From assembly GCA_003650545.1 (NCBI GenBank), contig QMQO01000003.1, forward strand, positions 15,103 to 79,102: a stretch of DNA of 64,000 nt, written 5' to 3'. A program made the translations under genes and the position numbers. The DNA comes from Candidatus Woesearchaeota archaeon (GTDB taxonomy: Archaea > Nanobdellota > Nanobdellia > Woesearchaeales > B72-G16). The notes beneath the pieces were generated by a model. It ran no database searches. It saw nothing but the letters and a program-made list of their open reading frames with translations, and was not told the DNA's origin. Shown one piece after another: positions 6,450 through 52,547 of this stretch (within the stretch, counting starts at the first letter, position 1; every line of letters begins with the position of its first letter).

Positions 6450-7535
6450 TTACCTTTCTTTTCCTATTTTCCAGTTTTTCAGATAAACTGTTCTTGTCGG
6501 GAATGGGATACCAATCTTTGCTTTGTTTAATGCATTATAAATTTTTTCTGTTGCTTCTAGCTTGGCATCAAAAGCTTGACTCTGATCTTCAACCCACATT
6601 CTAGCCTGAAACACTAATGCAGAATCTCCCATCTCTGTAAAGATGACATCAGGTGCAGGTTCTTTTATAATATTCTTTATTTTTGTGATTATAGGTAGGA
6701 TTAATTTCTTAACTTCATCTGGATTAGTGCCATACTCAACATTGAAGTTCACAACAATGCGCTGCTTTAGTGTTGGTTGTGTGAAGTTTTGGATGCGCGA
6801 GTTAGCAAGCTGACCATTTGGTATGACGATGCTCTCATTGTCAAATGTCCTTAAACGAGTACTTCTCAAACCAATATCTATGACGATACCCAGTTCGCCT
6901 GATTGAAGCTTTACTTTATCGCCAACTTTGATTGCTCTGTCCAAGATTAGAGAAACTCCCCCAAAGATATTAGCGAGGCTGTCCTTTAATGCAAATCCCA
7001 AAACAAGGCCTACCACTCCTAGCGAGGCCAACATTGGTGTTATGTTGACTCCCCATACACCAAGCACAATCACAATTCCTATTACCCAGATAGCTACTTT
7101 TGAAAATTTTTTAAACATAGGCAATAACTCATCATCGATGTCTGATTTTGTTTTTTTTGCAAAATGTTCAGCCCACACTTCTAAGATAACTTCAACAGTT
7201 ATAACTGCAATTGCTGTTGCTGTTAGTATAACTATAGTGTCAAGGAGACTGATTATGTATTTGTTTGTGAAGTTTAATGGCTTTAGTGCCAGCTTGATGC
7301 CTACGAAAAGCATTATATAAGAAAAAGGCGGTCTGATTTTTGCAACAAGAACATCGTCCCATTTGGTTTTTGTTTTCTTTGCTATTTTGCTCAACCAAAC
7401 CTTGGTGATCCAGGTTAAGATGAAAGCTGCAATTAGAAATAATAGAACAATAAGTCCAGCCTGTGCATATTGGTTGTTAAAATGAGGTATTTTGCTCATC
7501 CAATGAATCAAGTTTTCGGTTTTGTTTATCACCAT
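6450..7535 (-). CDS. mscS: small-conductance mechanosensitive channel (MscS family)
   Basis: N-terminal TM helices are followed by the MscS pore/beta-domain signature ALKDSLANIFGGVSLILDRAIKVGDKVKL...GIVIDIGLRSTRLRTFDN. Confidence 0.85.
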   Translation of the reverse strand: MVINKTENLIHWMSKIPHFNNQYAQAGLIVLLFLIAAFILTWITKVWLSKIAKKTKTKWDDVLVAKIRPPFSYIMLFVGIKLALKPLNFTNKYIISLLDTIVILTATAIAVITVEVILEVWAEHFAKKTKSDIDDELLPMFKKFSKVAIWVIGIVIVLGVWGVNITPMLASLGVVGLVLGFALKDSLANIFGGVSLILDRAIKVGDKVKLQSGELGIVIDIGLRSTRLRTFDNESIVIPNGQLANSRIQNFTQPTLKQRIVVNFNVEYGTNPDEVKKLILPIITKIKNIIKEPAPDVIFTEMGDSALVFQARMWVEDQSQAFDAKLEATEKIYNALNKAKIGIPFPTRTVYLKNWKIGKER

Positions 7536-8441: not shown

Positions 8442-8908
8442 ACCTCGTAGGATTTCAAAGCATTTATAAAGATTACTATGCATTTTTAAATGCAAACATA
8501 GATCAGTCTAAAAAGCAGTAAATTTAGTGGCATAGTTTAGTAGCATGGATTTCAGCATATTTGCTGACATACAGGTCTAATTTTAAATTTTTAAAGCATT
8601 GAAAGGTATTTAAAATCTATTGATAGAAAAGATAGAAAAAACATAAAAATTTAGTTTCTATTTTTTCTGCATCTTTTTCAATTTTCTCGTCAAATTGATT
8701 TAGATAACAATATTTTAGATGTTTAATATCAAATTACTATATTAGTTTTATTTTGTTGCAATCTATAAAAAGATATAAAAAGATCTTTTGCAATCTATAA
8801 AAATATCTTTATCACAGAATCAACAAGCAACAAGCAGAAACATTTATAAATAAGCTGAACTTTTCGTAGCTTATTGGTTATGAATTAAGTTTTGAAAGAG
8901 GTGCTAGG

Positions 8909-9379
8909 ATGAGGCATAAGAAAAAGGGAAGTCTTAATCTGTCTATGAATGCGATTGTGACTCTTATTCTTGCGGTGAGCATGCTTGCGGTTGGCTTGTT
9001 TGTTGTAAATTTCGTAAGGGGTAAGGCAACAACGATTTTTGAGCAGCTTGAATCTGAGATTCCAACTCCTGAAAGAGCAACACCAGGAAATCCACTCACA
9101 ATTTCAGGGCCAGTTGCTGCTCCAAGCGGAAAAACAACAGGAATTAAGATATCATATTATTCAGCTTCATCAGGTAACTTCAAACCTGATGTTGTATGTA
9201 CAGGTGAATTGGGGAACAGGTTAACTGTGCAAGCAACAAGCAAGAATTTTGCTGCAGGTGAATCAAAAGAGTTTCTTATATTGTTAACAGCAGATAAAGA
9301 CACACCACCTGATAGATATTTATGTACTGTGTCAATAGAGTATGAAGATCTTGACTTTTCATTCACTGTAACATCTTAG
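8909..9379 (+). CDS. archaeal type IV pilin-like protein (class III signal peptide)
   Basis: The N-terminus MRHKKKG/SLNLSMNAIVTLILAVSMLAVGLFVV has a basic stretch, a Gly and a hydrophobic helix, the prepilin-peptidase substrate pattern. The remainder is beta-rich. A GAGGTG SD lies upstream. Confidence 0.55.
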   Translation: MRHKKKGSLNLSMNAIVTLILAVSMLAVGLFVVNFVRGKATTIFEQLESEIPTPERATPGNPLTISGPVAAPSGKTTGIKISYYSASSGNFKPDVVCTGELGNRLTVQATSKNFAAGESKEFLILLTADKDTPPDRYLCTVSIEYEDLDFSFTVTS

Positions 9380-10246: not shown

Positions 10247-10870
10247 TCAAAATTTCTGATCAAACCTTTTTTCTGCAAACACATTCAGCCAGTTATAGCT
10301 ATTTTCGCGTTCAGAATAGGCTCTAATAATGTGAAAACCAGCCTGTTTCATTAAAGCTGTTAATTCATCAAGCTTGTAAAATGCAAAAAACCTTGGAAGA
10401 TTCCCTGATTTAGAATAGGTTACCATGCGCTCGCCATCACCTTCGCGTAAACCAATATAAATAATTCCTTTTGTCTTTAGTACGCGTTTGTACTCTTTTA
10501 GTAGATCCAGTGCATTTTTTTTTAAACAATGACAGAAGGTTGCATGACACCACACTCCATCGAATATGCCGTCTTCAAAACTCATGTTGAACATATCCAT
10601 CACCTTGAATTTTCCTTCTGGAACGCGTTTCTTTGCTTCATCTATCAGGTTTTTACTTGCGTCTATTCCAATTGTATCAAAGCCATCTTCTATTAGATAT
10701 TGAACATCTCTTCCAGAAGCACATCCAACATCAAGCACTTTAGCTTTCTTTGGCAGAAATGAGATAAATTCATTTAAAGGGAACTGAACAATCTTCTGGA
10801 AGTTGTATTCAGCATACTCTTTTGCGAACTTATCATAGACTGCTATTGTATCTTTAAGTTCTTGCTCCAT
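10247..10870 (-). CDS. class I SAM-dependent methyltransferase
   Basis: Motif I VLDVGCASGRD, the post-I segment IGIDAS, and LKTKGIIYIG are present. 207 aa. Confidence 0.8.
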   Translation of the reverse strand: MEQELKDTIAVYDKFAKEYAEYNFQKIVQFPLNEFISFLPKKAKVLDVGCASGRDVQYLIEDGFDTIGIDASKNLIDEAKKRVPEGKFKVMDMFNMSFEDGIFDGVWCHATFCHCLKKNALDLLKEYKRVLKTKGIIYIGLREGDGERMVTYSKSGNLPRFFAFYKLDELTALMKQAGFHIIRAYSERENSYNWLNVFAEKRFDQKF

Positions 10871-11054: not shown

Positions 11055-11717
11055 TTATTTCATAACATCCTTAACAATCATCACCAATGCATCTTTTGGC
11101 TTTCTAGCTTTAACAACAGCAGAAGAAAGCAGAACCCCTTTTGCCCCAAGATCAATAGCTAGCTTGATGTCTTTACTATTGTGGATACCTGCTCCTACTA
11201 ACAGCGGTGTTTTAAGGTATTTAGCTATGTTCTGAATTATGTGTGGTTTTGCTTTACTAACACTGATCCTTCCTGCAATCAGCTCAGGTGGCTCGATAGC
11301 AATGAAGTTAGGTTGCAGCGCATCTATCAATCTAGCGTCTGCACTATTTGGAGCACAGACTATTGATTTTAGGCCAGTTTCAATGCATCTCTCTATTGTC
11401 TTTTCTATATCTATAAATCTAACTGGGTGCTCTGAATGATTAATTAGTGTACCTATAGCACCTGCTGATCTAACAGCCTCTGGCAAAATAAAGCCTGTAT
11501 GTTTTCCTAGGTTGATTGGATCAACATGCTGCGCTACTATTGGAATATCAACCACTTCATAAATACGTTCTATATCAAGAAGTTGCGGAGCAATTGCGAT
11601 ATTTGCATTGGTTTCTTTAGCAGCACGATCACAGGCTTTTGCTAGTATCATGGCTTGCTTTCCTGTTGCTTCTTTATAAGCCTTAAAGTTAACTAATACA
11701 AATGGAGTCTTTAACAT
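11055..11717 (-). CDS. tpiA: triosephosphate isomerase (short archaeal type)
   Basis: VLVNFKAYKEATG, the catalytic region LINHSEH, IAIEPPELIG and VGAGI are present. The 220-aa length is typical of archaeal TIM. Confidence 0.9.
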   Translation of the reverse strand: MLKTPFVLVNFKAYKEATGKQAMILAKACDRAAKETNANIAIAPQLLDIERIYEVVDIPIVAQHVDPINLGKHTGFILPEAVRSAGAIGTLINHSEHPVRFIDIEKTIERCIETGLKSIVCAPNSADARLIDALQPNFIAIEPPELIAGRISVSKAKPHIIQNIAKYLKTPLLVGAGIHNSKDIKLAIDLGAKGVLLSSAVVKARKPKDALVMIVKDVMK

Positions 11718-12317: not shown

Positions 12318-12841
12318 GGAACTCACCCCTCTCTGATTTATTATTTTATAACAGTAATTTAACATCATGCTGTGTATATAAAGATTTGTTGTGGCATTTA
12401 ATACAACAAACGAAAAGATTAAATATTAAGGGTGTATCCAGAGATGTAGAACAGAGATATAGGAGATAATAACAGAGGTATAAGAGCATAACAACAAGAT
12501 GTAGGGGTAATAGCATATATACTTGTTTATTGACATTATGTGCTATATATACTATATATTGGCACTATACGACACTTACTATAGCAAGATATACTGAGTA
12601 GCAGGGTAAAGCAGGGTAATATCCATTAGATCAATAGCTCTGAAACCTTTAATATGATTTAGAAATTTTAGTAAATAATACTTACATAACATATTCAGAA
12701 ATAACATCAAACATAACATAAACCACATAACAAAGATTAGTTATGTTTGGTTCATTATTTACAGGTTATATTCAAAGTAACATAATATTAATCATAGACA
12801 TCTATGTTGTGACATCTATGTTGTCTATATGGGGGGATAAT

Positions 12842-13582
12842 ATGCATGAAAAAATATTGAGGGAGATTGGTCTTAGTAATAATGAAGCAAAAATTTACCT
12901 TGCACTGTTAGAATATGGCTCTGCTACAGCTTGTAAAATAGCAGAGAAGTCTGGGGTACATAGGAGTAATGTTTATGATGCATTAGAGCGTTTGTTAGAA
13001 AAAGGTCTTGTGAAATATGTGATTAAAGGAAATGTGAAGGTGTTTGGTGTTTTATCTCCAGAAAATCTTCTAAGCTATGTTAATCAAAAAAGCGAATTAT
13101 TAAAGAAGATTTTGCCTGAGATGATGCTTAAGCATAGCTTGACTGAAGAGAAAACACGTGCATATATACATCAGGGTGTATCTGCATTTAGACTAATATT
13201 GCAAGAGTGGCTGAAAAAGAAAAAACCAATTCTTGTTTATGGCATTCCAAAGAATGCAATTGATCTTATTGGTCCCTGGATAGAGGTGTTTCATAATGAG
13301 AGGATCAAGAAAAAGATTCAGATGAACCACATCTATAATGATGATGCTAAGGAGAGGATTAGTTTTCTTAACAAGTTGCCTTATACCGCGGCTCGTTTTT
13401 TGAATAATAAGTACGAATCAATGGTATCAACAAACATCTGTGGCGATGAGGTAATGCTATCATTGTGGATTCCTCCAGTTATCGTCATTAGGATAACTAG
13501 CTCTAAAATAGCAGAATCCTACAGAAATTATTTCAATGTTCTATGGAATGTTGCCAGGCAAGATGCTAGGCAGGATGATTAA
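12842..13582 (+). CDS. TrmB-family transcriptional regulator
   Basis: The N-terminal wHTH reads MHEKILREIGLSNNEAKIYLALLEYGSATACKIAEKSGVHRSNVYDALERLLEKGLV. I moved the start to the ATG at 12842, which is preceded by GGGGGG. Confidence 0.75.
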   Translation: MHEKILREIGLSNNEAKIYLALLEYGSATACKIAEKSGVHRSNVYDALERLLEKGLVKYVIKGNVKVFGVLSPENLLSYVNQKSELLKKILPEMMLKHSLTEEKTRAYIHQGVSAFRLILQEWLKKKKPILVYGIPKNAIDLIGPWIEVFHNERIKKKIQMNHIYNDDAKERISFLNKLPYTAARFLNNKYESMVSTNICGDEVMLSLWIPPVIVIRITSSKIAESYRNYFNVLWNVARQDARQDD

Positions 13583-23701: not shown

Positions 23702-23854
23702 ATAGTAATAGGGTTATAGTAAATATCAGTTCTGTTTTTTTTTCCGAAAAGTTAGGAAAGGGCAAATTCAATCAAGCATAAAGTGCAATAAATGAAATGA
23801 AGTAAAGGCAGTGCGTTGGTAATATTTATATACCACTTTATAATAATAACTCAT

Positions 23855-25211
23855 ATGAAAGTTCAACTAATACAACCAGCAGTAAATAAAAAATATTCAA
23901 GAATTTTGTCTAGCGGAACCATTCAGCCGATTGGATTAATATCATTAGCTACATTTCTACATAAGAATTTACCAGAAATAGATGTTGAAGTTTTCGATGG
24001 AGAGGTAACACCAGAAGAAGAAATTGAAAAGTGTATTGATGGAGATATAGTTGGTGTAGGTTCCACTTTAGTTACTCATGATAATGCTTTAAGAATTGCA
24101 GAAATTGCTAAGGAAAAAGGTGCTACAACTATCATGGGTGGAAAAAATGCAAGCGTATTGGCTGAAAATATTTTAAGAAACAGACCCTATATTGATTATG
24201 TAATTTCTGGTGATGGGGAACTTGCACTATTAGACTTAGTAAAGGGTATTTCTCCACTTTCAATTCCAGGGGTAATATATCGAACTAATAGTATTCCTGT
24301 TAGAAATGATGAACAATTTGTAGACTTTAGAGAAATTCCATTTCCAAATTTAGATTTTACAGACATGTCGAAATATTTTAAGATTTATAGAGCAAAACAC
24401 CCACACAGGGCACACGATGGCATGATTGGAATATATTCTCAAAAAGGTTGTGAATGGAGAGAAAAAACAAGAGGATGTGATTTTTGTGGTAGACTTGAAT
24501 ATAAAACTCAACAAAAAGATCAAAAGGAATTATGGGAATATTATTCAGCACTTAGGTCTTTATATGGTTCTGATATAATCTTTTTTATATGGTTCTGATA
24601 TAATCTTTTGGGATGTTTGTGATAATGTTACTGGAAATAGAGAATGGTTTGATAGTTTTGCTGCAGAAAAACCATCTGATTTTGATAATGAATTGAAATT
24701 TTACGTTAGAGCTGATAGATTACCACTAGAGGTAGTTAAAGCATTACGAAGGATTGGTACAAGTATTGTTTTTGTTGGTTTTGAAAGTGGAAGTGATGAA
24801 ATATTGCGTGGCATCGGAAAAGGTATAACCACTGAACAGAACTTTCAAGCGTCAAGAAGGCTTGGGCAGGAGGGTATTAAAGTTGAAGCTTCATTTGTAG
24901 TTGGATTACCCGGAGAAACAGAGGAATCTTTGGAAAGAACTTACCAACATGCAAGAGAAATTGCAGATGTCTGTGATGTAGAAATGTGTTTTGCGAATAT
25001 AATAATGCCTGTTCCTGGCTCAAAAATATATGAAAGACTTGTTAATTCGCCGTATGGATCACAATATCGATTATCAGATAACCCTGATCTAGAAGAAATC
25101 ACACGAGCTTATTTGCAAGGATTCACTCACGTTGGTTTTGAAACATTACAGGAATTTGGAAAACGATTAGAACAAGTTGGAAGATTAAGAGGAAGTCATG
25201 GGTATATCTAA
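23855..25211 (+). pseudogene. B12-binding-domain radical SAM gene disrupted by a 25-bp tandem duplication (frameshift)
   Basis: The N-terminal cobalamin-binding-like domain (MKVQLIQPA...PIGLISLATFL...IVGVGS...IMGG) and a Cys cluster (GCEWREKTRGCDFCG) lie in ORF 23816..24598. The radical-SAM core continues in ORF 24693..25211 (VFVGFESGSDEILR...). Deleting one 25-bp copy joins them in frame: ...SLYGSDIIFWDVCDNVTGNREWFDSFAAEKPSDFDNELKFYVRADR.... Confidence 0.75.
24561..24610. repeat. 25-bp tandem duplication inside the radical SAM gene
   Basis: Copy 1 (24561-24585) reads tatatggttctgatataatcttttt and copy 2 (24586-24610) reads tatatggttctgatataatcttttg. The 25 extra bases shift the frame by +1 and create a TGA at 24596-24598. 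Confidence 0.9.
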
Positions 25212-25275
25212 ATGCCCTGTCCTTTTATTTTAAGGTCTTTTTCTCAATAGAATAAAATGATCGTTCACTCAGGCG

Positions 25276-25316
25276 AGACTCAGCACTAAAGTGCTGGGCA
25301 GCCTTGGGTATTGTAG
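25276..25316. repeat. 41-bp perfect direct repeat, copy 1 (agactcagcactaaagtgctgggcagccttgggtattgtag)
   Basis: Identical to 26825-26865. It contains the hairpin cagcac-taaa-gtgctg. It is embedded in a GC-rich spacer, which is unusual for this AT-rich genome. Confidence 0.9.
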
Positions 25317-25445
25317 GTAGAGCGACCGGCAGTATGACGCAGGATTTTCACACATATTAATTTCTTTGGGCTGGGAGGAAATGTAGTAACTATCATGTAA
25401 TAAATAACTAAAAGGTTTATAAATGATTGTAATAATTATACTTAT

Positions 25446-26108
25446 ATGTTAGAAAGAATAGTAAATAGTTTCGGTAGATTGAGAAAATTACAAAGTATTG
25501 GTAGTTACGAAAGGTCAATGATTGAATATGGCTTAAATGAAGTAAATCAACATTGCGATAGTAGTAATACTTTGGTTCTTGCTAAAAGGATTTCTTTATT
25601 TTCAAAAGATGTTGATGACTACATTAGAAGAAGAGCAAGAACAGATTTACCTGCTTCACAATTTGTGGGCATTCCAGAAAGAAGAGAAGAATTTGTAGAA
25701 ATTGGTGGAGTTCTGGTTTATGGAAATAATGGCTTGATTGAAGTTCGATATTCTTCGCTAGATGTAGAAAATGTTAGGGAACTAGTTGAATTGCCAACAT
25801 CCAATTATCCTTGTGAATTTGCAGTTCCAAGAAAAACACGGGATGATTTCTATGGCGGAAGGCCATATAAAACTTACATAGAAACATCTACTGAATATCG
25901 TGTAAATCCCGAAGATTTTAATCAAGGAGATATAGTTATCGATTGGCATACACATCCTGATGAGGGAGTACCGAGTTTAGAAGATGTTAATTCAATGTTA
26001 AAGTTAGATGGTCTTATAGGGAATAAAAAATTGTATTCTGTTATTTATGTTCCTAGAGATGATCAATCTTATTGGTTCAAGATAGAAAAAGCCCAGCCCA
26101 AAGAGTAA
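25446..26108 (+). CDS. JAB/MPN (JAMM-like) metalloprotease-domain protein
   Basis: The C-terminal motif DWHTHPDEGVPSLEDVNSM has the HxH...S..D arrangement of JAMM/MPN+ domains, with one residue fewer between H and S than canonical. The N-terminal 160 aa match no recognised family. Confidence 0.5.
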   Translation: MLERIVNSFGRLRKLQSIGSYERSMIEYGLNEVNQHCDSSNTLVLAKRISLFSKDVDDYIRRRARTDLPASQFVGIPERREEFVEIGGVLVYGNNGLIEVRYSSLDVENVRELVELPTSNYPCEFAVPRKTRDDFYGGRPYKTYIETSTEYRVNPEDFNQGDIVIDWHTHPDEGVPSLEDVNSMLKLDGLIGNKKLYSVIYVPRDDQSYWFKIEKAQPKE

Positions 26109-26149
26109 AGTTTTTCTAATTTAGTGAAAATCCGAGTAATATTGCACAT

Positions 26150-26167
26150 AACATATGCGATCGCTGG
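26150..26167. repeat. palindrome-centred motif aacatatGCGATCGCtgg
   Basis: A near-identical copy, aacatccGCGATCGCtgt, is at 27846-27863. A degenerate copy, aacatcgcacttgctgtt, is at 26801-18 inside the 7-bp inverted repeat cctaaca/tgttagg. Each lies at the 5' end of a GC-rich inter-cassette spacer. Confidence 0.8.
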
Positions 26168-26286
26168 TTAACCGAACCGACCTCTACGAAGTGGGGGTAG
26201 TTAAGGCACAGGACAGATTAAAAACCAAAAGATTTTTATATAATTAAATAATCTTATTTAATATTAAATAATTTTGGGTGATTGAT

Positions 26287-26508
26287 ATGGTTTTAAAAAC
26301 ATTTAATGTGCAAGAAGATGTGTATAATAAATTTTCCCGTTTTTGTAAGAATCTTGGAATAAGTATGAGTAAACAAATAGAATTCTTTATGGAATCTTTT
26401 ATAGAAAATGAACCTGAAGCTAAGAAACAATATCTGGAGAAACTTGAAAAAATTAGAAGAGGAAAATTTGTTAAAGTTAAAAGTTTCGCTGATAGATATG
26501 GGTTGTAA
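26287..26508 (+). CDS. ribbon-helix-helix (CopG-like) antitoxin
   Basis: MVLKTFNVQEDVYNKFSRFCKNLGISMSKQIEFFMESFI shows the beta-strand/helix/helix RHH pattern. It ends 2 bp before the RelE-like gene. The ATG at 26287 is preceded by GGGTGA. Confidence 0.55.
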   Translation: MVLKTFNVQEDVYNKFSRFCKNLGISMSKQIEFFMESFIENEPEAKKQYLEKLEKIRRGKFVKVKSFADRYGL

Positions 26509-26510
26509 TT

Positions 26511-26774
26511 ATGAGTTATGATCTAGCAATTTCTGAAAAAGTAGATAAAAAGTTTAGTAAGTTGAGTAAAAAGAATAAAAAACAATTAAAGATAATTAAC
26601 AAGAAAATTCAAGAAATTCTTACTAACCCATATCACTTTAAACCGTTGCGTGGTGATTTAAAAGGAGCAAGAAGAATTCACATAGATAAATCTTTTGTTT
26701 TAGTATATGAAATAGATGAAAAAAATAAACTTGTAAAAATTTTAGATTATGATCATCATGATAACATATACTAA
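26511..26774 (+). CDS. relE: RelE/ParE-family type II toxin
   Basis: 87 aa with ...ILTNPYHFKPLRGDLKGARRIHIDKSFVLVYEIDEKNKLVKILDYDHHDNIY, the typical RelE/YoeB-like core (L.G.L.G..R.r.g.yR..Y.I....v.i......H...Y). Confidence 0.75.
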   Translation: MSYDLAISEKVDKKFSKLSKKNKKQLKIINKKIQEILTNPYHFKPLRGDLKGARRIHIDKSFVLVYEIDEKNKLVKILDYDHHDNIY

Positions 26775-26824
26775 GGTCTGTCCGAGCATTAATTGCGCCT
26801 AACATCGCACTTGCTGTTAGGGCA

Positions 26825-26865
26825 AGACTCAGCACTAAAGTGCTGGGCAGCCTTGGGTATTGTAG
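26825..26865. repeat. 41-bp perfect direct repeat, copy 2
   Basis: Identical to 25276-25316. Here it sits in the centre of an imperfect palindrome of about 85 bp (left arm cgcctaacatcgcacttgc, right arm gtgcaacgatgccgaaggcg). Confidence 0.9.
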
Positions 26866-26945
26866 TGCAACGATGCCGAAGGCGAAAAGAGTTTTCGCAA
26901 TCGCCATTATTCACAGAACGAAGTGATACATCAAAGACAAGAATC

Positions 26946-26963
26946 AAGGGGACACACTCAAAC
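26946..26963. repeat. left arm of an inverted repeat (aaggggacacactcaaac; perfect 15-bp core ggggacacactcaaa)
   Basis: The reverse complement of 27809-27826 is aagggggacacactcaaa. Aligned by codon, the arms differ by only two substitutions over 21 bp. Both arms encode I-(K/R)-G-T-H-S in open frames on opposite strands. Confidence 0.85.
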
Positions 26964-26983
26964 AAAAAACAAGAATCGGGGGC

Positions 26984-27313
26984 TTAATGATATCGGTTTT
27001 TATATTCAGGATATTGTTCAAATAACTCTTTTTGTAATTGTTCATTTGAATTTTTAGAATTTTTGAGTATCCTCTTCACTTTTATTGAAAACCAGAATGA
27101 AGCAAATATCATAATTGCTCCTAAAATTATTACCACGCATATTGTATATAAAGTAATTCCATTAATGGCGATTATAATTGCTACAACAGAAAGCAGTAAA
27201 GCAATTAGAGAAATAGCAAAAGATAGCATAAATGTCGCAGTATTAGATAAAAAATCTCTGTTTGATTGATCAAATTGAATCCAAAAAAGTTTATCTTGTT
27301 TTGTTCTCTTCAT
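26984..27313 (-). CDS. hypothetical two-TM membrane protein
   Basis: 109 aa with two long hydrophobic helices. Its start overlaps the stop of the upstream fragment ORF (ATGA overlap). Confidence 0.35.
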   Translation of the reverse strand: MKRTKQDKLFWIQFDQSNRDFLSNTATFMLSFAISLIALLLSVVAIIIAINGITLYTICVVIILGAIMIFASFWFSIKVKRILKNSKNSNEQLQKELFEQYPEYKNRYH

Positions 27314-27798
27314 TTAATACAATCCTCAATTATTTTAATTTCTTTACTTTTTAGATTGTATAAGTCATAAAGAATAATATTTATCTGTTCAATAATCGCA
27401 TTTATTTGTCTTAATAATAAATTTTTTTCATGTTTTAAATCAGTTGAATTATATCTCTTTTTTAACTCGATTACATTGGAAACCATATTCACAATTTTAT
27501 CATGTTTATCTTTTTCAGAAGAATCATTAAAATTAATCCTTCTAATTGGTATTTCTCCAGCGAATTGCTTATTTGTGGCATAGAAGCCGCCACTCAGAAA
27601 AATGCTAGTTTTACTTATGAAAAATGATGCAATTGGACTGTTTAGAATTGCTATGAAATAAAATGGGTTTTCTTTCACTTCATCTTTTAGTATTATTCCA
27701 TTTGCACCCACATTATCAAGGCAATATTCACCTTGATTATCAATTGCTGAAACTGTCTTTTTAACGACATGAGGAATCAATATCTTTTTTAAATGCAC
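27310..27798 (-). pseudogene. C-terminal fragment of a type IIG/Eco57I-like restriction-modification enzyme (TaqI-like target-recognition domain)
   Basis: ...NPFYFIAILNSPIASFFISKTSIFLSGGFYATNKQFAGEIPIRRINF... followed by a helical tail (IEQINIILYDLYNLKSKEI) matches the pattern of the C-terminal specificity domain of N6-adenine methyltransferase/restriction-modification fusion enzymes. Only 162 codons remain, it has a GTG start, and no methyltransferase domain lies upstream. Confidence 0.5.
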
Positions 27799-27808
27799 GA
27801 AGTGCCTT

Positions 27809-27826
27809 TTTGAGTGTGTCCCCCTT
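27809..27826. repeat. right arm of the inverted repeat (tttgagtgtgtccccctt)
   Basis: See 26946-26963. It lies in the open frame just upstream of the restriction-modification-fragment ORF (…KKIRGTHSKRHF-VHLKK…). Confidence 0.85.
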
Positions 27827-27845
27827 ATCTTTTTTATTCTAAATT

Positions 27846-27863
27846 AACATCCGCGATCGCTGT
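27846..27863. repeat. palindrome-centred motif aacatccGCGATCGCtgt
   Basis: Second copy of the motif at 26150-26167. The sequence after it (to about 27925) aligns loosely with the spacer at 26168-26215. Confidence 0.8.
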
Positions 27864-27983
27864 TGTGCGAAGTAAGCCGCAGTTCGTGAGGGCTTATACG
27901 GGCCAGGTGAGGATTTATTTGTGAGGATTCAAGCTTTTTGAATGGGCTGAGGAGACTGTTTTTCTAATTTTTTTACTTCAGTA

Positions 27984-28101
27984 GCACCACCACTGGCGCC
28001 GGCGAGACAAATCAAAATCCCGATGAGCTTGCGAGTCGAGATTTTGATTTGGCGAGTAGGATTTGCAAAGCAAATCCGTCGGCTGCCTGTTGTGGTGGTG
28101 C
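27984..28101 (+). ncRNA. unclassified GC-rich Y-shaped structured element (candidate ncRNA or DNA structure)
   Basis: Helices read directly from the sequence. P1 pairs 27984-27993 gcaccaccac with 28092-28101 gtggtggtgc (10 bp). P1b pairs 27995-28003 with 28078-28087 (9 bp, including one G-U and one bulged U). P2 pairs 28008-28019 caaatcaaaatc with 28040-28051 gattttgatttg (12 bp, 20-nt loop). P3 pairs 28059-28066 ggatttgc with 28070-28077 gcaaatcc (8 bp, aaa loop). The strand assignment is weak and rests only on the single G-U pair. Confidence 0.35.
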
Positions 28102-28364
28102 ATATAATTCTCCATAAAAAAACAGCAATCCGAATGTACGCATAACTATTTCTTATAACTAGACTAGATTGTTGAGTTTTTTTGAAATAAATACCAAAAG
28201 ATATATATATTAAAGCTGCCAAATAAAAATTATATAAAAAATTAGTTGGATATAAAGATTTAAAGATTCCAAATGTTATTCAGATTTGAAAATTATAAAA
28301 AAAGTTGATACAATAGAGAATCTAAAATTTAATCAGCATAACTTGTTGAGGTGGTATTTTTCTG

Positions 28365-28777: not shown

Positions 28778-30547
28778 ATGGTTGAGGTTTTTGCTAATGT
28801 ATTTGTACAGATGGGGATAATCATTATTGTTGCGACTCTTGGCGGCTATCTCTCTAGGCTTCTCAAACAACCTCTGATTCCACTTTATATCCTTATTGGA
28901 GTTCTGTTAGGACCAGAGTTAGGTTCACGTCTCGGTGCTATGCTAGGCATTAATTTTGCAGGCCTAATTACAAATCAAGCATTAATCCAAGATCTAGCGA
29001 TGTTTGGTATTGCTTTCTTGTTGTTCATAGTAGGCCTTGAGATGAACATAAAAAAGCTAAAAAACATCGGTCATATATCAATTATAGGAACACCAATTCA
29101 GGTTGCACTGATGTTCATATTTGGCTTTGTTATTACAACTGCTTTTCTTGGCAAATTCTTTCCTGGCACAAGGGACGCAATCTATATAGGATTAGTGCTG
29201 GCGTTCAGTAGCACTGTTGTGGTGATAAAGCTATTAGCAGATAGGCGTGAGCTAGATACATTACATGGGAGAATCGCTATTGGAATATTAATTGTGCAGG
29301 ATATCATAGCTATTTTAGCCATAACATTCTTGTCAGCGATTGGTGTTACATCTATTGTTAAACTCATACTTACATTATTAGGGGCTGTAGCGTTGATCGT
29401 GATAGCGTTGTTATTGGGTAAGTATGTGTTTCCGAAGATATTCAATTTCGCAGCTAAAAGTGAAGAGCTTCTGCTTTTAAGCTCTTTAGCAGTGCTATTT
29501 GTGTTTGTGTTTTTGTTTAATGCTATTGGTTTCTCAATAGCAATTGGTGCCTTTGTGGCAGGTCTAGCATTAGCTAATCTACCTTATAACTACGAAGTCA
29601 TTGGCAAGGTTAAATCAATAAAAGATTTTTTTGCTACAATATTTTTTGTGGCATTAGGTATGCAGTTTTCTTTAATAGGTATTAATACCTCGGTCTGGAT
29701 TCCGCTATTGATACTGTTTGTAATGATCGTGATAGCGAAACCAATAATATTTATGTTTCTTGGAGCTTTTTTTGGATATACCGAGCGTACTCTATTTTTA
29801 TTTTCTTTTTCACTTGGACAGGTTTCAGAATTCTCGCTCATCATAGTCAGCCTAGGTGTGCTAGAACTAAAACAGGCTTCAACCGCGTTATTATCCGTCA
29901 CTATTGTTCTTGCTATAGCCACAATTGCATTCACTTCTTACTTCATCAAGTTTGAAGATAAGATCTACAGATTCCTGAAGCCACGGTTTAAGATATTTAG
30001 CAGGACTACGGCAGACTTAGAGTATTTGCCTGCTAAATATGAATATGATATTATACAGATTGGCTATGATAGGATTGGCTATAGCATCCTAAAAACATTG
30101 CAAGATAAAAAAGATAGGGTTTTAATATGTGATTTTAATCCTGAGATAATTAAAAAACTCATCGTACAAAAGATTCCTTGTATTTATGGTGACGCGGCAG
30201 ATGAAGAGATACTAAAAAGGCTCCATCTAAATAAAGCCAAACTAGTGATATCAACTTCGCCGAATTTCGATGATAATGTAATAATCATAAGAAAAACAAA
30301 AGCAGCTAATAAGAGAGCACATGTTTTTGTAACTGCAAACACAGTTGATGAAGCACTAGAACTTTATAGGCATGGTGCTGATTATGTGATCATACCACAT
30401 TTTCTCGGTGGTGAAAAAGTTTCTTCAATATTAGAGCAAGCATCAAAGAATTACAGAAAGTTTAGATCATTAAAAAAAGAGCATGTAGCACATCTTAAAG
30501 AAAGATTAAAAATGGGGCATCGAAACACACTAAAGAATCATCGTTAA
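28778..30547 (+). CDS. CPA2-family cation:proton antiporter with C-terminal RCK/TrkA-N domain (Kef-type)
   Basis: An N-terminal polytopic membrane domain of about 390 aa shows typical Na+/H+-exchanger helices (LGPELG, VQDIIAIL). A C-terminal Rossmann region (IIQIGYDRIGYSILKTL...VLICDFNPE...IYGDAADEEIL) follows. Confidence 0.85.
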   Translation: MVEVFANVFVQMGIIIIVATLGGYLSRLLKQPLIPLYILIGVLLGPELGSRLGAMLGINFAGLITNQALIQDLAMFGIAFLLFIVGLEMNIKKLKNIGHISIIGTPIQVALMFIFGFVITTAFLGKFFPGTRDAIYIGLVLAFSSTVVVIKLLADRRELDTLHGRIAIGILIVQDIIAILAITFLSAIGVTSIVKLILTLLGAVALIVIALLLGKYVFPKIFNFAAKSEELLLLSSLAVLFVFVFLFNAIGFSIAIGAFVAGLALANLPYNYEVIGKVKSIKDFFATIFFVALGMQFSLIGINTSVWIPLLILFVMIVIAKPIIFMFLGAFFGYTERTLFLFSFSLGQVSEFSLIIVSLGVLELKQASTALLSVTIVLAIATIAFTSYFIKFEDKIYRFLKPRFKIFSRTTADLEYLPAKYEYDIIQIGYDRIGYSILKTLQDKKDRVLICDFNPEIIKKLIVQKIPCIYGDAADEEILKRLHLNKAKLVISTSPNFDDNVIIIRKTKAANKRAHVFVTANTVDEALELYRHGADYVIIPHFLGGEKVSSILEQASKNYRKFRSLKKEHVAHLKERLKMGHRNTLKNHR

Positions 30548-51965: not shown

Positions 51966-52547
51966 ATGGCTTCATTACTTGACTTATCACTAGCGCAACA
52001 TTTCGCTGTTATCTTTGCGCTTTTGTTTATTTTTGTTGTTGTTTATGCTATATTACAGTATACCAAATTTTTAGAAGCTGATAAGAATGTGCACGCGCTC
52101 ATCGCTTTTATAGTTGCGTTCTTGTTCATACTAAGTCCACAAGCTATCAATGCTGTTACTAATTTTGCACCGTGGTTCACTATGTTTTTTGTGTTTGCAA
52201 CATTCTTTATAGCTGCATATACGTTATTTGGAATAAAAACAGAAGATATTGCAAAGGTGATCAAGCACCCAACAGCAGCCTGGACTTTAGGGATATTAGC
52301 CTTTGTGGTAGGTGCTGCAGCCATCGGTGCGGCTTTTGGCCAGACTTTTCTTGAATTTGGTGCTAAAGCAGGCATCCCTGGTGTGACAGAGCCTGGTGAA
52401 ATTACAGATCTTCCAATTAACACAACAGCCGGTTATGTTGCTAATGTCCAAAGAACATTATTTGACCCAAAAGTTATTGGCCTGTTCTTTGTGATGGCAA
52501 TTGCGATTGCAACTATTAAATTGTTAGCAGGAAAAGCGATAGCATAA
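51966..52547 (+). CDS. polytopic membrane protein, paralog 3 of 3
   Basis: AVIFALLFIFVVVYAILQYTKFL. About 5 TM helices. It is more divergent than the other two. Confidence 0.5.
   Translation: MASLLDLSLAQHFAVIFALLFIFVVVYAILQYTKFLEADKNVHALIAFIVAFLFILSPQAINAVTNFAPWFTMFFVFATFFIAAYTLFGIKTEDIAKVIKHPTAAWTLGILAFVVGAAAIGAAFGQTFLEFGAKAGIPGVTEPGEITDLPINTTAGYVANVQRTLFDPKVIGLFFVMAIAIATIKLLAGKAIA

Follow-up and report, generated by a model that had tools for sequence, protein, structure and literature searches.

Small gene modules with co-oriented hairpin elements in a Woesearchaeota chromosome: a possible integron-like cassette array with a different site

Are the GC-rich spacers between small accessory genes in a Woesearchaeota (DPANN) chromosome sites at which those genes are exchanged? 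The question is raised by region 25212-28364 of the window, the whole 64-kb stretch of DNA analysed here, where three small gene modules form a short array with core genes on either side. A sequence-only reading had described them as promoter-less cassettes separated by spacers sharing four sequence blocks. The genes and their control regions are:

23816-25211, + strand: left flank, B12-binding radical-SAM gene (Pfam B12-binding, Radical_SAM)
25408-25425, + strand: JAB promoter, BRE/TATA-like, CTAAAAGGTTTATAAATG, read from sequence, 21 nt before the ATG
25446-26108, + strand: module 1, JAB/MPN-domain protein (Pfam Prok-JAB 26.7 bits, cutoff 25)
26223-26271, + strand: toxin-antitoxin (TA) promoter AACCAAAAGATTTTTATATAA and 18-bp perfect palindrome TTATTTAATATTAAATAA
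26278-26774, + strand: module 2, RHH-like antitoxin and ParE/RelE-family toxin (Pfam)
26984-27798, - strand: module 3, reversed, TM protein and TaqI-like specificity-domain fragment (Pfam TaqI_C 4.7e-10)
28778-30547, + strand: right flank, Kef-type cation/proton antiporter, a core gene (Pfam Na_H_Exchanger, TrkA_N)

The gene content is as first described, with Prok-JAB, the ParE/RelE toxin, a weak RHH, the TM protein and a partial TaqI_C all found. Module 2 is composed of the antitoxin (26278/26288-26508; RHH_5 weak, E 0.016 only) and the toxin (26511-26774; ParE-like_toxin 6.5e-10), whose homologues in many archaea are 70-79% identical. In module 3 the TM protein (26984-27313) adjoins a 5'-truncated TaqI-like fragment (27310-27798); the TaqI_C match covers profile positions 40-118 only, and the gene is thus truncated. 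The radical-SAM gene is split by a 25-bp perfect tandem duplication at 24559-24608, and removing one copy in silico restores a single ORF of 456 aa. Kef antiporter homologues are common across DPANN. Two Candidatus Woesearchaeota proteins, DRJ17_01220 and DRJ17_01250, match the JAB and Kef proteins, respectively, at 100% identity. A family-B DNA polymerase gene is also present in the window.

The modules are not promoter-less. BRE/TATA-like boxes can be read before the JAB gene and before the TA pair (26223-26243), and each module possesses a BRE/TATA-like promoter of its own, which differs from integron arrays, as do the private inverted-repeat brackets described below. The JAB promoter block is also found in related contigs, at L003 9952-10000 and at L002 8611-8651, where it precedes another gene. 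The 18-bp palindrome (26254-26271), presumed to be the antitoxin operator, also precedes the homologous TA pairs of L126, L128 and L130.

That the spacers are GC outliers was borne out by a windowed analysis. They have 44-51% GC against 17-25% in ordinary intergenic DNA, with 100-nt peaks of 0.50 (25250-25349), 0.50 (26800-26899) and 0.51 (27850-27949) against a window mean of about 0.34; spacer 2 is the weakest outlier, peaking at 0.39. In a genome of 33% GC a stable hairpin requires G+C, which accounts for the high GC of the hairpin elements in the spacers. These elements, with other features of the spacers, are:

25272-25316, - strand: IS200/IS605 relic, copy 1, with one hairpin, CAGCACTAAAGTGCTG
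26141-26173, + strand: head hairpin 1, ATTGCACA-TAACA-TAT-GCGATCGC-TGGTTAACC
26181-26197, + strand: GC-rich post-head hairpin with GAA loop, CCTCTACGAAGTGGGGG; G-T/G-U pairs on this strand only
26792-26822, + strand: head hairpin 2, a variant, ATTGCGCC-TAACA-TC-GCACTTGC-TGTTAGGG, assigned by family comparison
26821-26865, - strand: IS200/IS605 relic, copy 2, between head and conserved linker
26863-26898, + strand: linker and GAA-loop hairpin conserved in the head family, TAGTGCAACG-ATGCCGAAGGCG-AAAAGAGTTTTCGC
27841-27867, + strand: head hairpin 3, AAAT-TAACA-TCC-GCGATCGC-TGTTGTG
27868-27975, + strand: GC-rich post-head tail of spacer 4, containing CGAAG
27984-28101, strand unassigned: 118-nt three-way-junction element, folding equally well on both strands

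The palindromic head proposed for spacers 2 and 4 is real: TAACATNNGCGATCGCTG lies at 26149-26166 and 27845-27862, and its core GCGATCGC occurs at these two places in 64 kb and nowhere else (0.12 expected), with none of 2000 shuffles aligning as well. Of the degenerate copies suggested elsewhere, the one in spacer 3 (26792-26822, ATTGCGCCTAACATCGCACTTGCTGTTAGGG) stood when judged against about 35 family members, and that in spacer 1 did not (1374/2000 and 1168/2000 shuffles as good). Similarly, what had been loosely aligned after the head in spacers 2 and 4 amounts to CGAAGT alone (1511/2000 shuffles as good), and the direct block aggattt...tgggctgRgga of spacers 1 and 4 is matched by 255/2000 shuffles. 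Rather than one mosaic of four blocks, only two repeats are real, each of a different origin.

The second of these is the 41-bp block of spacers 1 and 3, which consists of 40 perfect nucleotides, or 45 with one mismatch (25272-25316 and 26821-26865); the 64-kb window has no third copy, and chance would produce none. The repeat was correctly recognized, and its role as a boundary site was not: it is a 45-nt relic, unrelated to the boundary sites, of an insertion sequence of the IS200/IS605 family, whose members are single-strand transposons. In copy 1 the hairpin lies between left-end-type and right-end-type sequence, without tnpA, and copy 2 occupies the place of a variable hairpin in intact members of the head family. 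An intact element with a Y1_Tnp gene is carried by the related metagenome contig L002 (8694-9425). As in known IS200/IS605 elements, its gene lies between two identical subterminal hairpins, terminal inverted repeats and target duplication are lacking, and the element directly follows, on the 3' side, a short CTA-type target; copies with internal deletions, comparable to PATEs or MITEs, are also present (L002, about 200-330). Unlike the intact element, the window relics keep a single hairpin with left- and right-end flanks fused into 45 nt, and they should be immobile because the known mechanism requires two ends.

The heads belong to a family of the form ATTG-N4-5-TAACA, a one-sided bulge of 2-3 nt, a palindrome of 6-8 nt of free sequence, and TGTTR, after which follow one to three small GC-rich, CGAAG-rich hairpins. 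Members are present in contigs of Woesearchaeota, Nanoarchaeia and Micrarchaeota, and in contigs binned as Methanosarcinales. The head family conserves structure, not sequence. In fact, the loop palindromes are perfect yet differ (GCGATCGC, GGCATGCC, GGAATTCC, GGGCCC, GCGCGC, AGCGCT), the longest averaging 5.7 nt versus 2.3 in shuffled sequence (0/5000), and four distinct stems occur in the GAA-loop hairpin that follows GTGCAACG (TCGGC/GCCGA, TGCC/GGCA, TCCC/GGGA, TTGGGC/GCCCAA). The element is also a discrete unit that is conserved where the flanks are unrelated (L041/L060, 93% over 84 nt; L101/L102, 82% over 89 nt; L001/L122, 92% over 53 nt). The linker at 26863-26898 matches L003 9876-9911 and L002 8694-8730, as well as L041, L060, L101, L102 and L075. 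For the tail of spacer 4 (27868-27975) neither fold nor repeat is significant. The 118-nt element folds at -63.0 kcal/mol (z -7.4) on the + strand and -58.2 (z -7.5) on the - strand, with neither an Rfam match nor a second copy among the fetched loci.

Heads keep to the modules and are not spread over the sequence. The three of the window lie within 1.7 kb, and the other intergenic regions of the 64 kb have none. In related contigs they occur singly or in arrays of strictly one orientation (window 3/3 on +, L003 7/7 on +, L080 3 on +, L002 9/9 on -, L001 3/3 on -), while the genes in these arrays face both directions. The one-sided bulge is constant among family members, and CGAAG is biased 32:1 towards the head strand in 6.9 kb of array spacers (p = 4e-9), versus counts of 24 and 18 in 60.8 kb outside the island; the folding advantage of the head strand is weak (23-25/36, p = 0.02-0.05). 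The finding of the same site family at module ends in L002, L003, L001 and L080 corroborates the cassette-like layout with structured sites. Moreover, the same modules are found in different neighbourhoods, JAB in the window, L003 and L004 (homologues 67% identical, in differing contexts) and the TA pair in the window and L130; in other Woesearchaeota the JAB and TA modules are each followed by that host's head type.

Many modules are also flanked by a private inverted repeat, placed just outside the promoter and just past the stop codon:

25342-25351: JAB-module inverted repeat, left arm, 10 nt, GGATTTTCAC, 19.8 bits
26124-26133: JAB-module inverted repeat, right arm, GTGAAAATCC
26943-26962: module-3 inverted repeat, left arm, 20 nt, 90%, 31.6 bits
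27809-27828: module-3 inverted repeat, right arm

Inverted matches of at least 24 bits join 9/29 adjacent spacer pairs versus 4/104 non-adjacent ones (Fisher p = 1.4e-4), and direct matches join 2/29 adjacent pairs. The 10-nt JAB repeat is weak alone, and its position fits the pattern of other arrays. Comparison of L003 with L004 shows that its right arm belongs to the module's own 3' flank, which counts against the explanation preferred below.

Our preferred explanation, held tentatively and at slightly less than even confidence, is a cassette array that resembles an integron but relies on another kind of site, a single-strand hairpin. The hairpin elements, as single strands, would be strand-specific boundary sites at which modules may be gained, lost or exchanged, following the logic of integron cassette arrays with a much shorter site. 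In keeping with this, an independent assembly of the same organism breaks within head 3: a Logan contig starts at 27858, the centre of GCGAT/CGC. As in integron arrays and CALINs, small modules of about 0.65-1.05 kb with TA and unknown genes stand in tandem, each module end has a co-oriented imperfect-palindrome site irrespective of gene direction, site type is uniform inside a genome and different between genomes, and no integrase is nearby. A scan of 44 window ORFs found no recombinase or transposase, in agreement with the earlier reading; tblastn with TnpA found no transposase, and a tyrosine recombinase close to a head was found at a single related locus, L101. The acting enzyme would be encoded elsewhere and could be a tyrosine recombinase of Xer/IntI type, a candidate because the TAAC/GTTA pair is the integron R box core, or an HUH Y1 enzyme. 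A TAAC-GTTA spacing that varies between 3 and 14 nt does not sit easily with a double-strand core site for a tyrosine recombinase, and two recombinase monomers would have little room on a head stem of about 5+2 bp. Neither excision products nor empty sites were seen, nor was any polymorphism at the level of cassettes; the nearest Kef relative shares 56% identity and lacks synteny.

Xer-dependent dif modules (pdif modules) were reportedly described on Acinetobacter plasmids by Blackwell and Hall in 2017. They are small, often toxin-antitoxin modules bounded by short recombinase core-type sites, and the housekeeping recombinase that moves them has its gene elsewhere. The window modules resemble them in size, TA content and short core-type sites, and the head half-site TTAACAT/ATGTTAA resembles the XerD arm of dif; pdif sites, in contrast, measure 28 bp, their 6-bp centre is fixed and their orientation alternates, whereas heads are co-oriented with a variable centre.

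A serious but unlikely competitor is selfish or neutral repeat debris: REP/BIME- or MITE-like heads and hairpin chains would have accumulated together with IS200/IS605 relics in a tolerant accessory region, without a role in gene movement, the cassette look being a by-product. Across genomes the discrete unit, of about 85-130 nt, indeed keeps 80-93% identity although its flanks are unrelated, spacers are mosaics of short common blocks in either orientation, and IS200/IS605 genes occur in the same regions (tnpA in L002 and L102, tnpB in L076), one such element being inserted in the head-element linker. Single head copies are common, many genomes having one element per 8-kb block and no array, and the TA homologues in L126 and L128 are without any head. 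Like REPs, heads are short GC-rich imperfect palindromes just outside genes, with a short conserved motif preceding the hairpin (ATTG in heads, GTAG in REPs), mosaic clusters and an association with single-strand-acting IS200-type Y1 enzymes. Unlike REP/BIME, however, they are restricted to accessory arrays, absent from the remaining roughly 60 kb of the window despite dozens of intergenic regions, and strictly co-oriented, not alternating; no RAYT-like gene was found, and the sole Y1 gene (L002) has its own, different end hairpins. Strict co-orientation over arrays of 8-11 kb and a regular place 0-120 nt past the module end are not expected under random insertion, neither terminal inverted repeats nor target duplications were seen, and the module-specific brackets would be left unexplained.

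It is improbable that the elements act at the RNA level, as a transcribed 3' UTR hairpin chain (terminator, insulator or transcript stabiliser) carried by moving genes. Most heads lie 15-120 nt past a stop codon on the same strand, several stems have G-T/G-U pairs on the head strand only, stems co-vary, and CGAAG is strongly strand-specific. Nevertheless, at module 3 of the window and at L002 7261-7647, 6201-6667 and 4318-4677 the preceding gene is antisense, so the head is outside its transcript. Archaeal terminator-type T-runs 3' of the hairpins and Rfam family matches are lacking, and the GAA loops closed by C-G point to DNA mini-hairpins over RNA. Such three-nucleotide loops typify DNA mini-hairpins of very high stability, less so RNA; Hirao and colleagues are said to have found d(GCGAAGC) to be such a mini-hairpin.

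A canonical cassette array without integrase is very improbable, although some genomes of Nanoarchaeota/Woesearchaeales have been found to carry CALINs (Ghaly et al. 2022, PMC9668308), the layout and TA content here are those usual in such arrays, and in heads the YTAAC...GTTR core of R''/R' is present. Based on nine attC sites with experimentally shown recombination, a covariance model reached at best 15.7 bits in the window (E 0.18) and aligned heads through the TAAC/GTTA pair only, skipping 49-51/66 positions (the whole L box and loop), which excludes a canonical integron and agrees with the earlier remark that attC rules are unmet. Real attCs are one long imperfect ssDNA hairpin with extrahelical bases and an L box, whereas heads lack all three, add a chain of short GAA-loop hairpins and hold their core pair 3-14 nt apart, versus 40-130 nt. 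Least probable of all are decayed higher-GC gene fragments or foreign/chimeric DNA, suggested by spacer GC in an AT-rich genome and by short ORFs (40-97 aa) across spacers, since no spacer ORF reaches the Pfam cut-off (sole match 14.2 bits, E 0.041, cutoff 19), no plasmid or phage DNA matches except at the toxin gene, and the same elements recur across independent assemblies and genomes.

With an integron-like layout whose sites failed the integron test, this array may reflect a mechanism of module exchange that has yet to be described.

The island (25212-28364) consists of self-promoted accessory modules in an integron-like array. The three modules listed in the sequence-only reading, a JAB/MPN gene, an RHH-RelE toxin-antitoxin (TA) pair and a TM gene with a fragment of a restriction-modification specificity domain, were recovered with the same gene content by ORF and Pfam analysis. 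They had also been called promoter-less, which does not hold: BRE/TATA-like boxes, as read from the sequence, lie upstream of the JAB gene and of the TA pair, and comparable ones lie upstream of modules on L002 and L003, two of the related loci that we fetched.

Genes and candidate promoter boxes of the island
25408-25425, BRE/TATA-like box of the JAB module
25446-26108, Prok-JAB protein (Pfam)
26223-26243, BRE/TATA-like box of the TA pair
26278-26774, weak RHH protein, then a ParE/RelE toxin (Pfam)
26984-27313, opposite strand (-), TM protein
27310-27798, opposite strand (-), TaqI_C fragment, profile positions 40-118 only

A perfect 18-bp palindrome, TTATTTAATATTAAATAA (26254-26271), is located directly upstream of the RHH-ParE pair, and near-identical palindromes precede homologous TA pairs in three further archaeal contigs (L126 at about 2630, L128 at about 5715 and L130 at about 770); it is probably the antitoxin operator. 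In the TaqI-like ORF the first 39 profile positions and the entire methyltransferase part are missing, and its truncated 5' end adjoins the right arm of an inverted repeat and head 3, the last of the hairpin elements that follow the modules. A once-larger restriction-modification gene therefore appears to have been cut here by the module boundary.

The window has a G+C content of about 34% and carries core genes, including those for a family-B DNA polymerase, tRNA-guanine transglycosylase, TrmB and Lrp regulators and others similar. Its JAB and Kef proteins are 100% identical to the Candidatus Woesearchaeota MAG proteins DRJ17_01220 and DRJ17_01250, which identifies the host as a DPANN archaeon; the nearest Kef relative shares 56% identity and lies at a locus, L125, without synteny to the window. 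ARAGORN detected no tRNA in the window, and the Rfam 15 scan gave no match at the gathering score, the island yielding only chance matches (E > 2). On the left flank, the B12-binding radical-SAM gene is split by a perfect 25-bp tandem duplication (TTTATATGGTTCTGATATAATCTTT twice, 24559-24608), and a single 456-aa ORF is regained once one copy is deleted in silico; the cause is a recent frameshift or else an artefact of assembly.

The four spacers around the modules had been described as GC-rich. In 100-nt windows they peak at 0.50-0.51, against 0.17-0.25 in normal intergenic DNA, except for spacer 2, which is weaker (0.39). Two of the repeats proposed for them are real: the 41-bp block of spacers 1 and 3, which extends to 45 nt with one mismatch (25272-25316 and 26821-26865), and the palindromic head of spacers 2 and 4, found as TAACATNNGCGATCGCTG at 26149 and 27845. 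Both of these heads contain GCGATCGC, which occurs nowhere else in the 64 kb. As for the degenerate heads claimed in spacers 1 and 3, that of spacer 3 is a true variant (26792-26822), whereas that of spacer 1 is at chance level in a shuffle test; by the same kind of test, neither the post-head block attributed to spacers 2 and 4 nor the aggattt...tgggctgRgga block is better than chance. A 118-nt three-way-junction element (27984-28101; stems of 10, 12 and 8 bp) separates head 3 from the small ORF/Kef operon and folds with -63 kcal/mol and a z of about -7.4 whichever strand is taken. It is single-copy across all fetched DNA and has no Rfam match; it may serve as an ncRNA, regulate the antiporter in cis, or be a hairpin site that is unoccupied.

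The boundary elements are a DPANN-wide, strand-specific hairpin family without a match in the Rfam scan or the literature search, where we found no description of them. Copies of the head motif are present on L001 and L002, with variant forms on L003, L004 and L130. About 35 heads have in common ATTG-N4-5 followed by a bulged hairpin, and matches to the motif are intergenic with one exception. The consensus is ATTG-N4-5-TAACA, two or three unpaired nucleotides on the 5' side only, a perfect palindrome of 6-8 nt, and TGTTR. The palindromes vary among copies (GCGATCGC, GGCATGCC, GGAATTCC, GGGCCC, GCGCGC, AGCGCT) and greatly exceed those of shuffled loops in length (5.7 nt versus 2.3 nt; 0/5000), so that symmetry or pairing, and no fixed sequence, is conserved. 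The head is followed 3' by one to three short GC-rich hairpins, frequently with GAA loops; DNA mini-hairpins of the d(GCGAAGC) type are exceptionally stable. In one subfamily a conserved linker, TTTAGTGCAACG, precedes a GAA-loop hairpin whose stem takes four different complementary forms, a covariation judged by inspecting the sequences themselves. A strict count of GAA-loop hairpins (at least four Watson-Crick pairs) gives small numbers, about 13 versus 5. In the array spacers, 32 copies of CGAAG lie on the head strand and a single one on the opposite strand (p = 4e-9), a bias that was not found outside the island; the folding-energy difference between the strands of the elements is weak.

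Scanning species-representative genomes with TAACANNNGCGATCGCTGTT returned 118 loci, mostly noise from cyanobacterial HIP1 (GCGATCGC), from which true family members were chosen by downstream homology and low GC.

Loci with family members, by lineage
Woesearchaeota: L041, L056, L060, L122
Nanoarchaeota/Nanoarchaeia: L076, L102, L104
Micrarchaeota: L080
Contigs binned as Methanosarcinales: L009, L040, L075, L101

Similarity between genomes is limited to the element (93% over 84 nt, 82% over 89 nt and 92% over 53 nt), the flanks being unrelated. The heads on the four Methanosarcinales-binned contigs are full-length, and one of these contigs, L075, has a GC content of 61%; either the element has spread across lineages or DPANN contigs have been mis-binned.

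The three heads of the window (26149, 26800 and 27845) share the + strand and are confined to 1.7 kb of the island, with none in the intergenic DNA of the remaining 60 kb or so. Heads are co-oriented on each contig (three in the window, nine on L002, three on L001, seven on L003 and three on L080), and the intervening genes run either way. The JAB module (67% protein identity) is found in three unrelated neighbourhoods and the TA module (74%) in at least two Woesearchaeota arrays; the head after each copy is of the type that characterises its own genome. The TA homologues of L126 and L128 have no head at all.

Many modules are moreover bracketed by a private inverted repeat, whose left arm lies just 5' of the promoter and whose right arm lies 0-20 nt past the stop codon.

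Examples of inverted-repeat brackets
JAB module of L003: 32 nt, 100%
TA pair of L002: 16 nt, 100%
Module 3 of the window, 26943-26962 and 27809-27828: 20 nt, 90%

Strong inverted matches join 9/29 pairs of adjacent spacers versus 4/104 pairs of non-adjacent ones (Fisher p = 1.4e-4); direct matches join 2/29 of the adjacent pairs. One origin that we considered for the brackets, insertion of modules into a hairpin loop that was already there, does not square in any simple way with the comparison of L003 and L004, where the right arm is part of the JAB module's own 3' flank. Not readily explained, the brackets offer a concrete lead. On L003, a motif of 13-16 nt, GTGGCGGAATTTT, stands at one module boundary after another, its orientation alternating (6997-7012, 8741-8756, 10823-10838 and 11178-11190), forming nested brackets round one or two modules, which recalls alternating dif-type sites.

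In an independent Logan assembly of the same organism (SRR6823441), positions 1-30 of contig L006 correspond to the window from 27858 onward, so that the contig starts in the middle of head 3, at the GCGAT|CGC centre. This start may mark a branch of the assembly graph, with an alternative upstream sequence; the break is compatible with such a branch and is no proof of polymorphism.

The 45-mer has a different origin from the heads. A 22-mer from the 41-mer block matched only L001 and L002, from metagenome Ga0180301, several matches being at contig ends, and had no match among species-representative genomes in the genome-collection scan. On L002 the hairpin CCCAGCACTAAAGTGCTGGG stands on either side of a tnpA gene (8895-9359, 154 aa; Y1_Tnp, an IS200-like transposase, 1.8e-28), giving an element with subterminal hairpins at both ends and no terminal inverted repeats, as in IS200/IS605; further copies on L002 and L001 are internally deleted (one) or lie at contig ends. 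The window 45-mer consists of a right-end-type flank, one hairpin and a left-end-type flank (GGCRAGAC and CAGCCTTGGGTATTG) and is therefore a tnpA-less relic with its ends fused at the hairpin. The Y1 HUH transposase that defines IS200/IS605 was not found in the window by tblastn; the two copies are IS200/IS605 relics or debris, not elements. Since they have the same boundaries within different flanks, and a common T absent from L002, they stem from one miniature ancestor. In spacer 3 the relic lies between head and linker, the place of a variable hairpin in intact family members.

Two further genes of the IS200/IS605 family lie 0.4-1.3 kb from head elements: a TnpB (IS605 OrfB-like) gene on L076 (1748-2629) and, on L102 (1862-2344), another IS200-like tnpA, which is divergent and has end hairpins of its own. 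Regions with heads seem to be frequented by IS200/IS605-family elements, which transpose in single-stranded form and show a replication-linked orientation bias. REP loops, for their part, are insertion targets of IS1397 and ISKpn1.

Archaeal integrons and CALINs are known, Woesearchaeales included (PMC9668308), and ten attC sequences that recombined experimentally are given in the supplement of that paper. From nine of these ten we built a covariance model, R1 (two long loops trimmed, structure given by hand, 14 pairs), which is small and home-built, not IntegronFinder's model, and was run with filters off. Its best window match (15.7 bits, E 0.18) is an unrelated AT-rich hairpin outside the island. 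The heads score 9.8-12.9 bits, aligning through the R''/R' pair only and skipping 49-51 of the 66 model positions. They do carry the R''/R' core (RYYYAAC, GTTRRRY) as YTAAC...GTTR(R), the halves only 3-14 nt apart, and they lack the L''/L' box, the unpaired central spacer and the variable loop that make attC a single imperfect hairpin, some 55-140 nt long. As ssDNA, real attC controls fold into one long imperfect hairpin closed by R''/R', and the spacers into chains of short hairpins. The earlier remark that the spacers fit attC rules badly is borne out: the head site has the integron R-box core, but is no attC.

The top R1 match, ACATAACAAAGATTAGTTATGT (12725-12746), is an isolated TAAC...GTTA mini-hairpin that spans the start codon of a TrmB-family ORF (12743-13582); another, TAACACAACAGCCGGTTA (52418-52435), lies within an ORF. 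Both are probably chance.

Co-oriented sites, at least two and less than 4 kb apart beside short ORFs, are found in the window and on L001, L002, L003 and L080, as in integron arrays. Integron cassettes mostly have no promoter of their own and are expressed from a shared one; the modules carry predicted boxes. The absence of a recombinase reported for the window is confirmed: no Phage_integrase-type match, as an IntI-type tyrosine recombinase would give, occurs among the 44 window ORFs that were scanned or on L001-L004. CALINs lack such a recombinase and attI by definition. Contig L101 has a 260-aa XerC/D-like tyrosine recombinase (961-1743, HTLRHSFATHLL...GHKDLKTTQIYTHV) that ends 230 nt 5' of a complete head (1970-2066); as this is the sole such case among the fetched loci, no linkage is claimed. 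The pdif modules moved by XerC/D differ from the heads: dif sites span 28 bp, a fixed 6-bp centre between two 11-bp arms, and alternate in orientation, whereas the heads have a centre of 3-14 nt and are co-oriented.

The strongest rival to an exchange site is a selfish repeat, REP/BIME- or MITE-like. The heads are indeed short imperfect extragenic palindromes with a conserved 5' motif and many copies, a discrete unit shared horizontally in the company of IS200/IS605 elements. However, REPs are dispersed genome-wide and go with a single-copy RAYT gene between inverted REPs, and a selfish origin leaves the confinement to arrays unexplained and fits neither the strict co-orientation nor the inverted-repeat brackets; the sole Y1 genes seen, on L002 and L102, are flanked by their own hairpins, different from the heads. 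A role at the RNA level, as 3' UTR or terminator, agrees with the strand bias and with the common position of the elements after stop codons, but some heads follow genes of opposite orientation. The idea that the spacers are a decayed gene is unsupported, as no spacer ORF reaches the cut-off of any Pfam family and the spacer DNA has no match in plasmid or phage records.

We infer, tentatively and at somewhat short of an even chance, that the hairpins mediate gain and loss of modules, probably as ssDNA, through a trans-acting tyrosine or HUH enzyme. A wider claim, that DPANN archaea, and perhaps some methanogens, own an undescribed gene-cassette system, is more doubtful. In it, self-promoted modules, each with its private bracket, would be inserted, excised or exchanged at the heads, and the site acted upon in trans would be a short strand-specific ssDNA hairpin: TAACA, bulge, palindrome, TGTTA, then GAA-loop hairpins. 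Such a system would parallel integrons functionally with another site architecture, independent of attC.

To our knowledge, integrons are the sole well-understood system that stockpiles and shuffles single-gene cassettes, and those of archaea have been recognised to date solely via bacterial-type attC sites. The locus and its relatives are cassette-like arrays of DPANN archaea; the sites at their boundaries do not pass as attC yet share its TAAC/GTTA core. Even if selfish, the heads would be a DPANN-wide family of repetitive extragenic palindromes, absent from the Rfam scan and the literature found, that breaks assemblies at these loci. If they are recombination sites, present integron finders would overlook a class of archaeal gene-exchange platforms, at which small host-dependent archaea may gain defence, toxin-antitoxin and other accessory genes.
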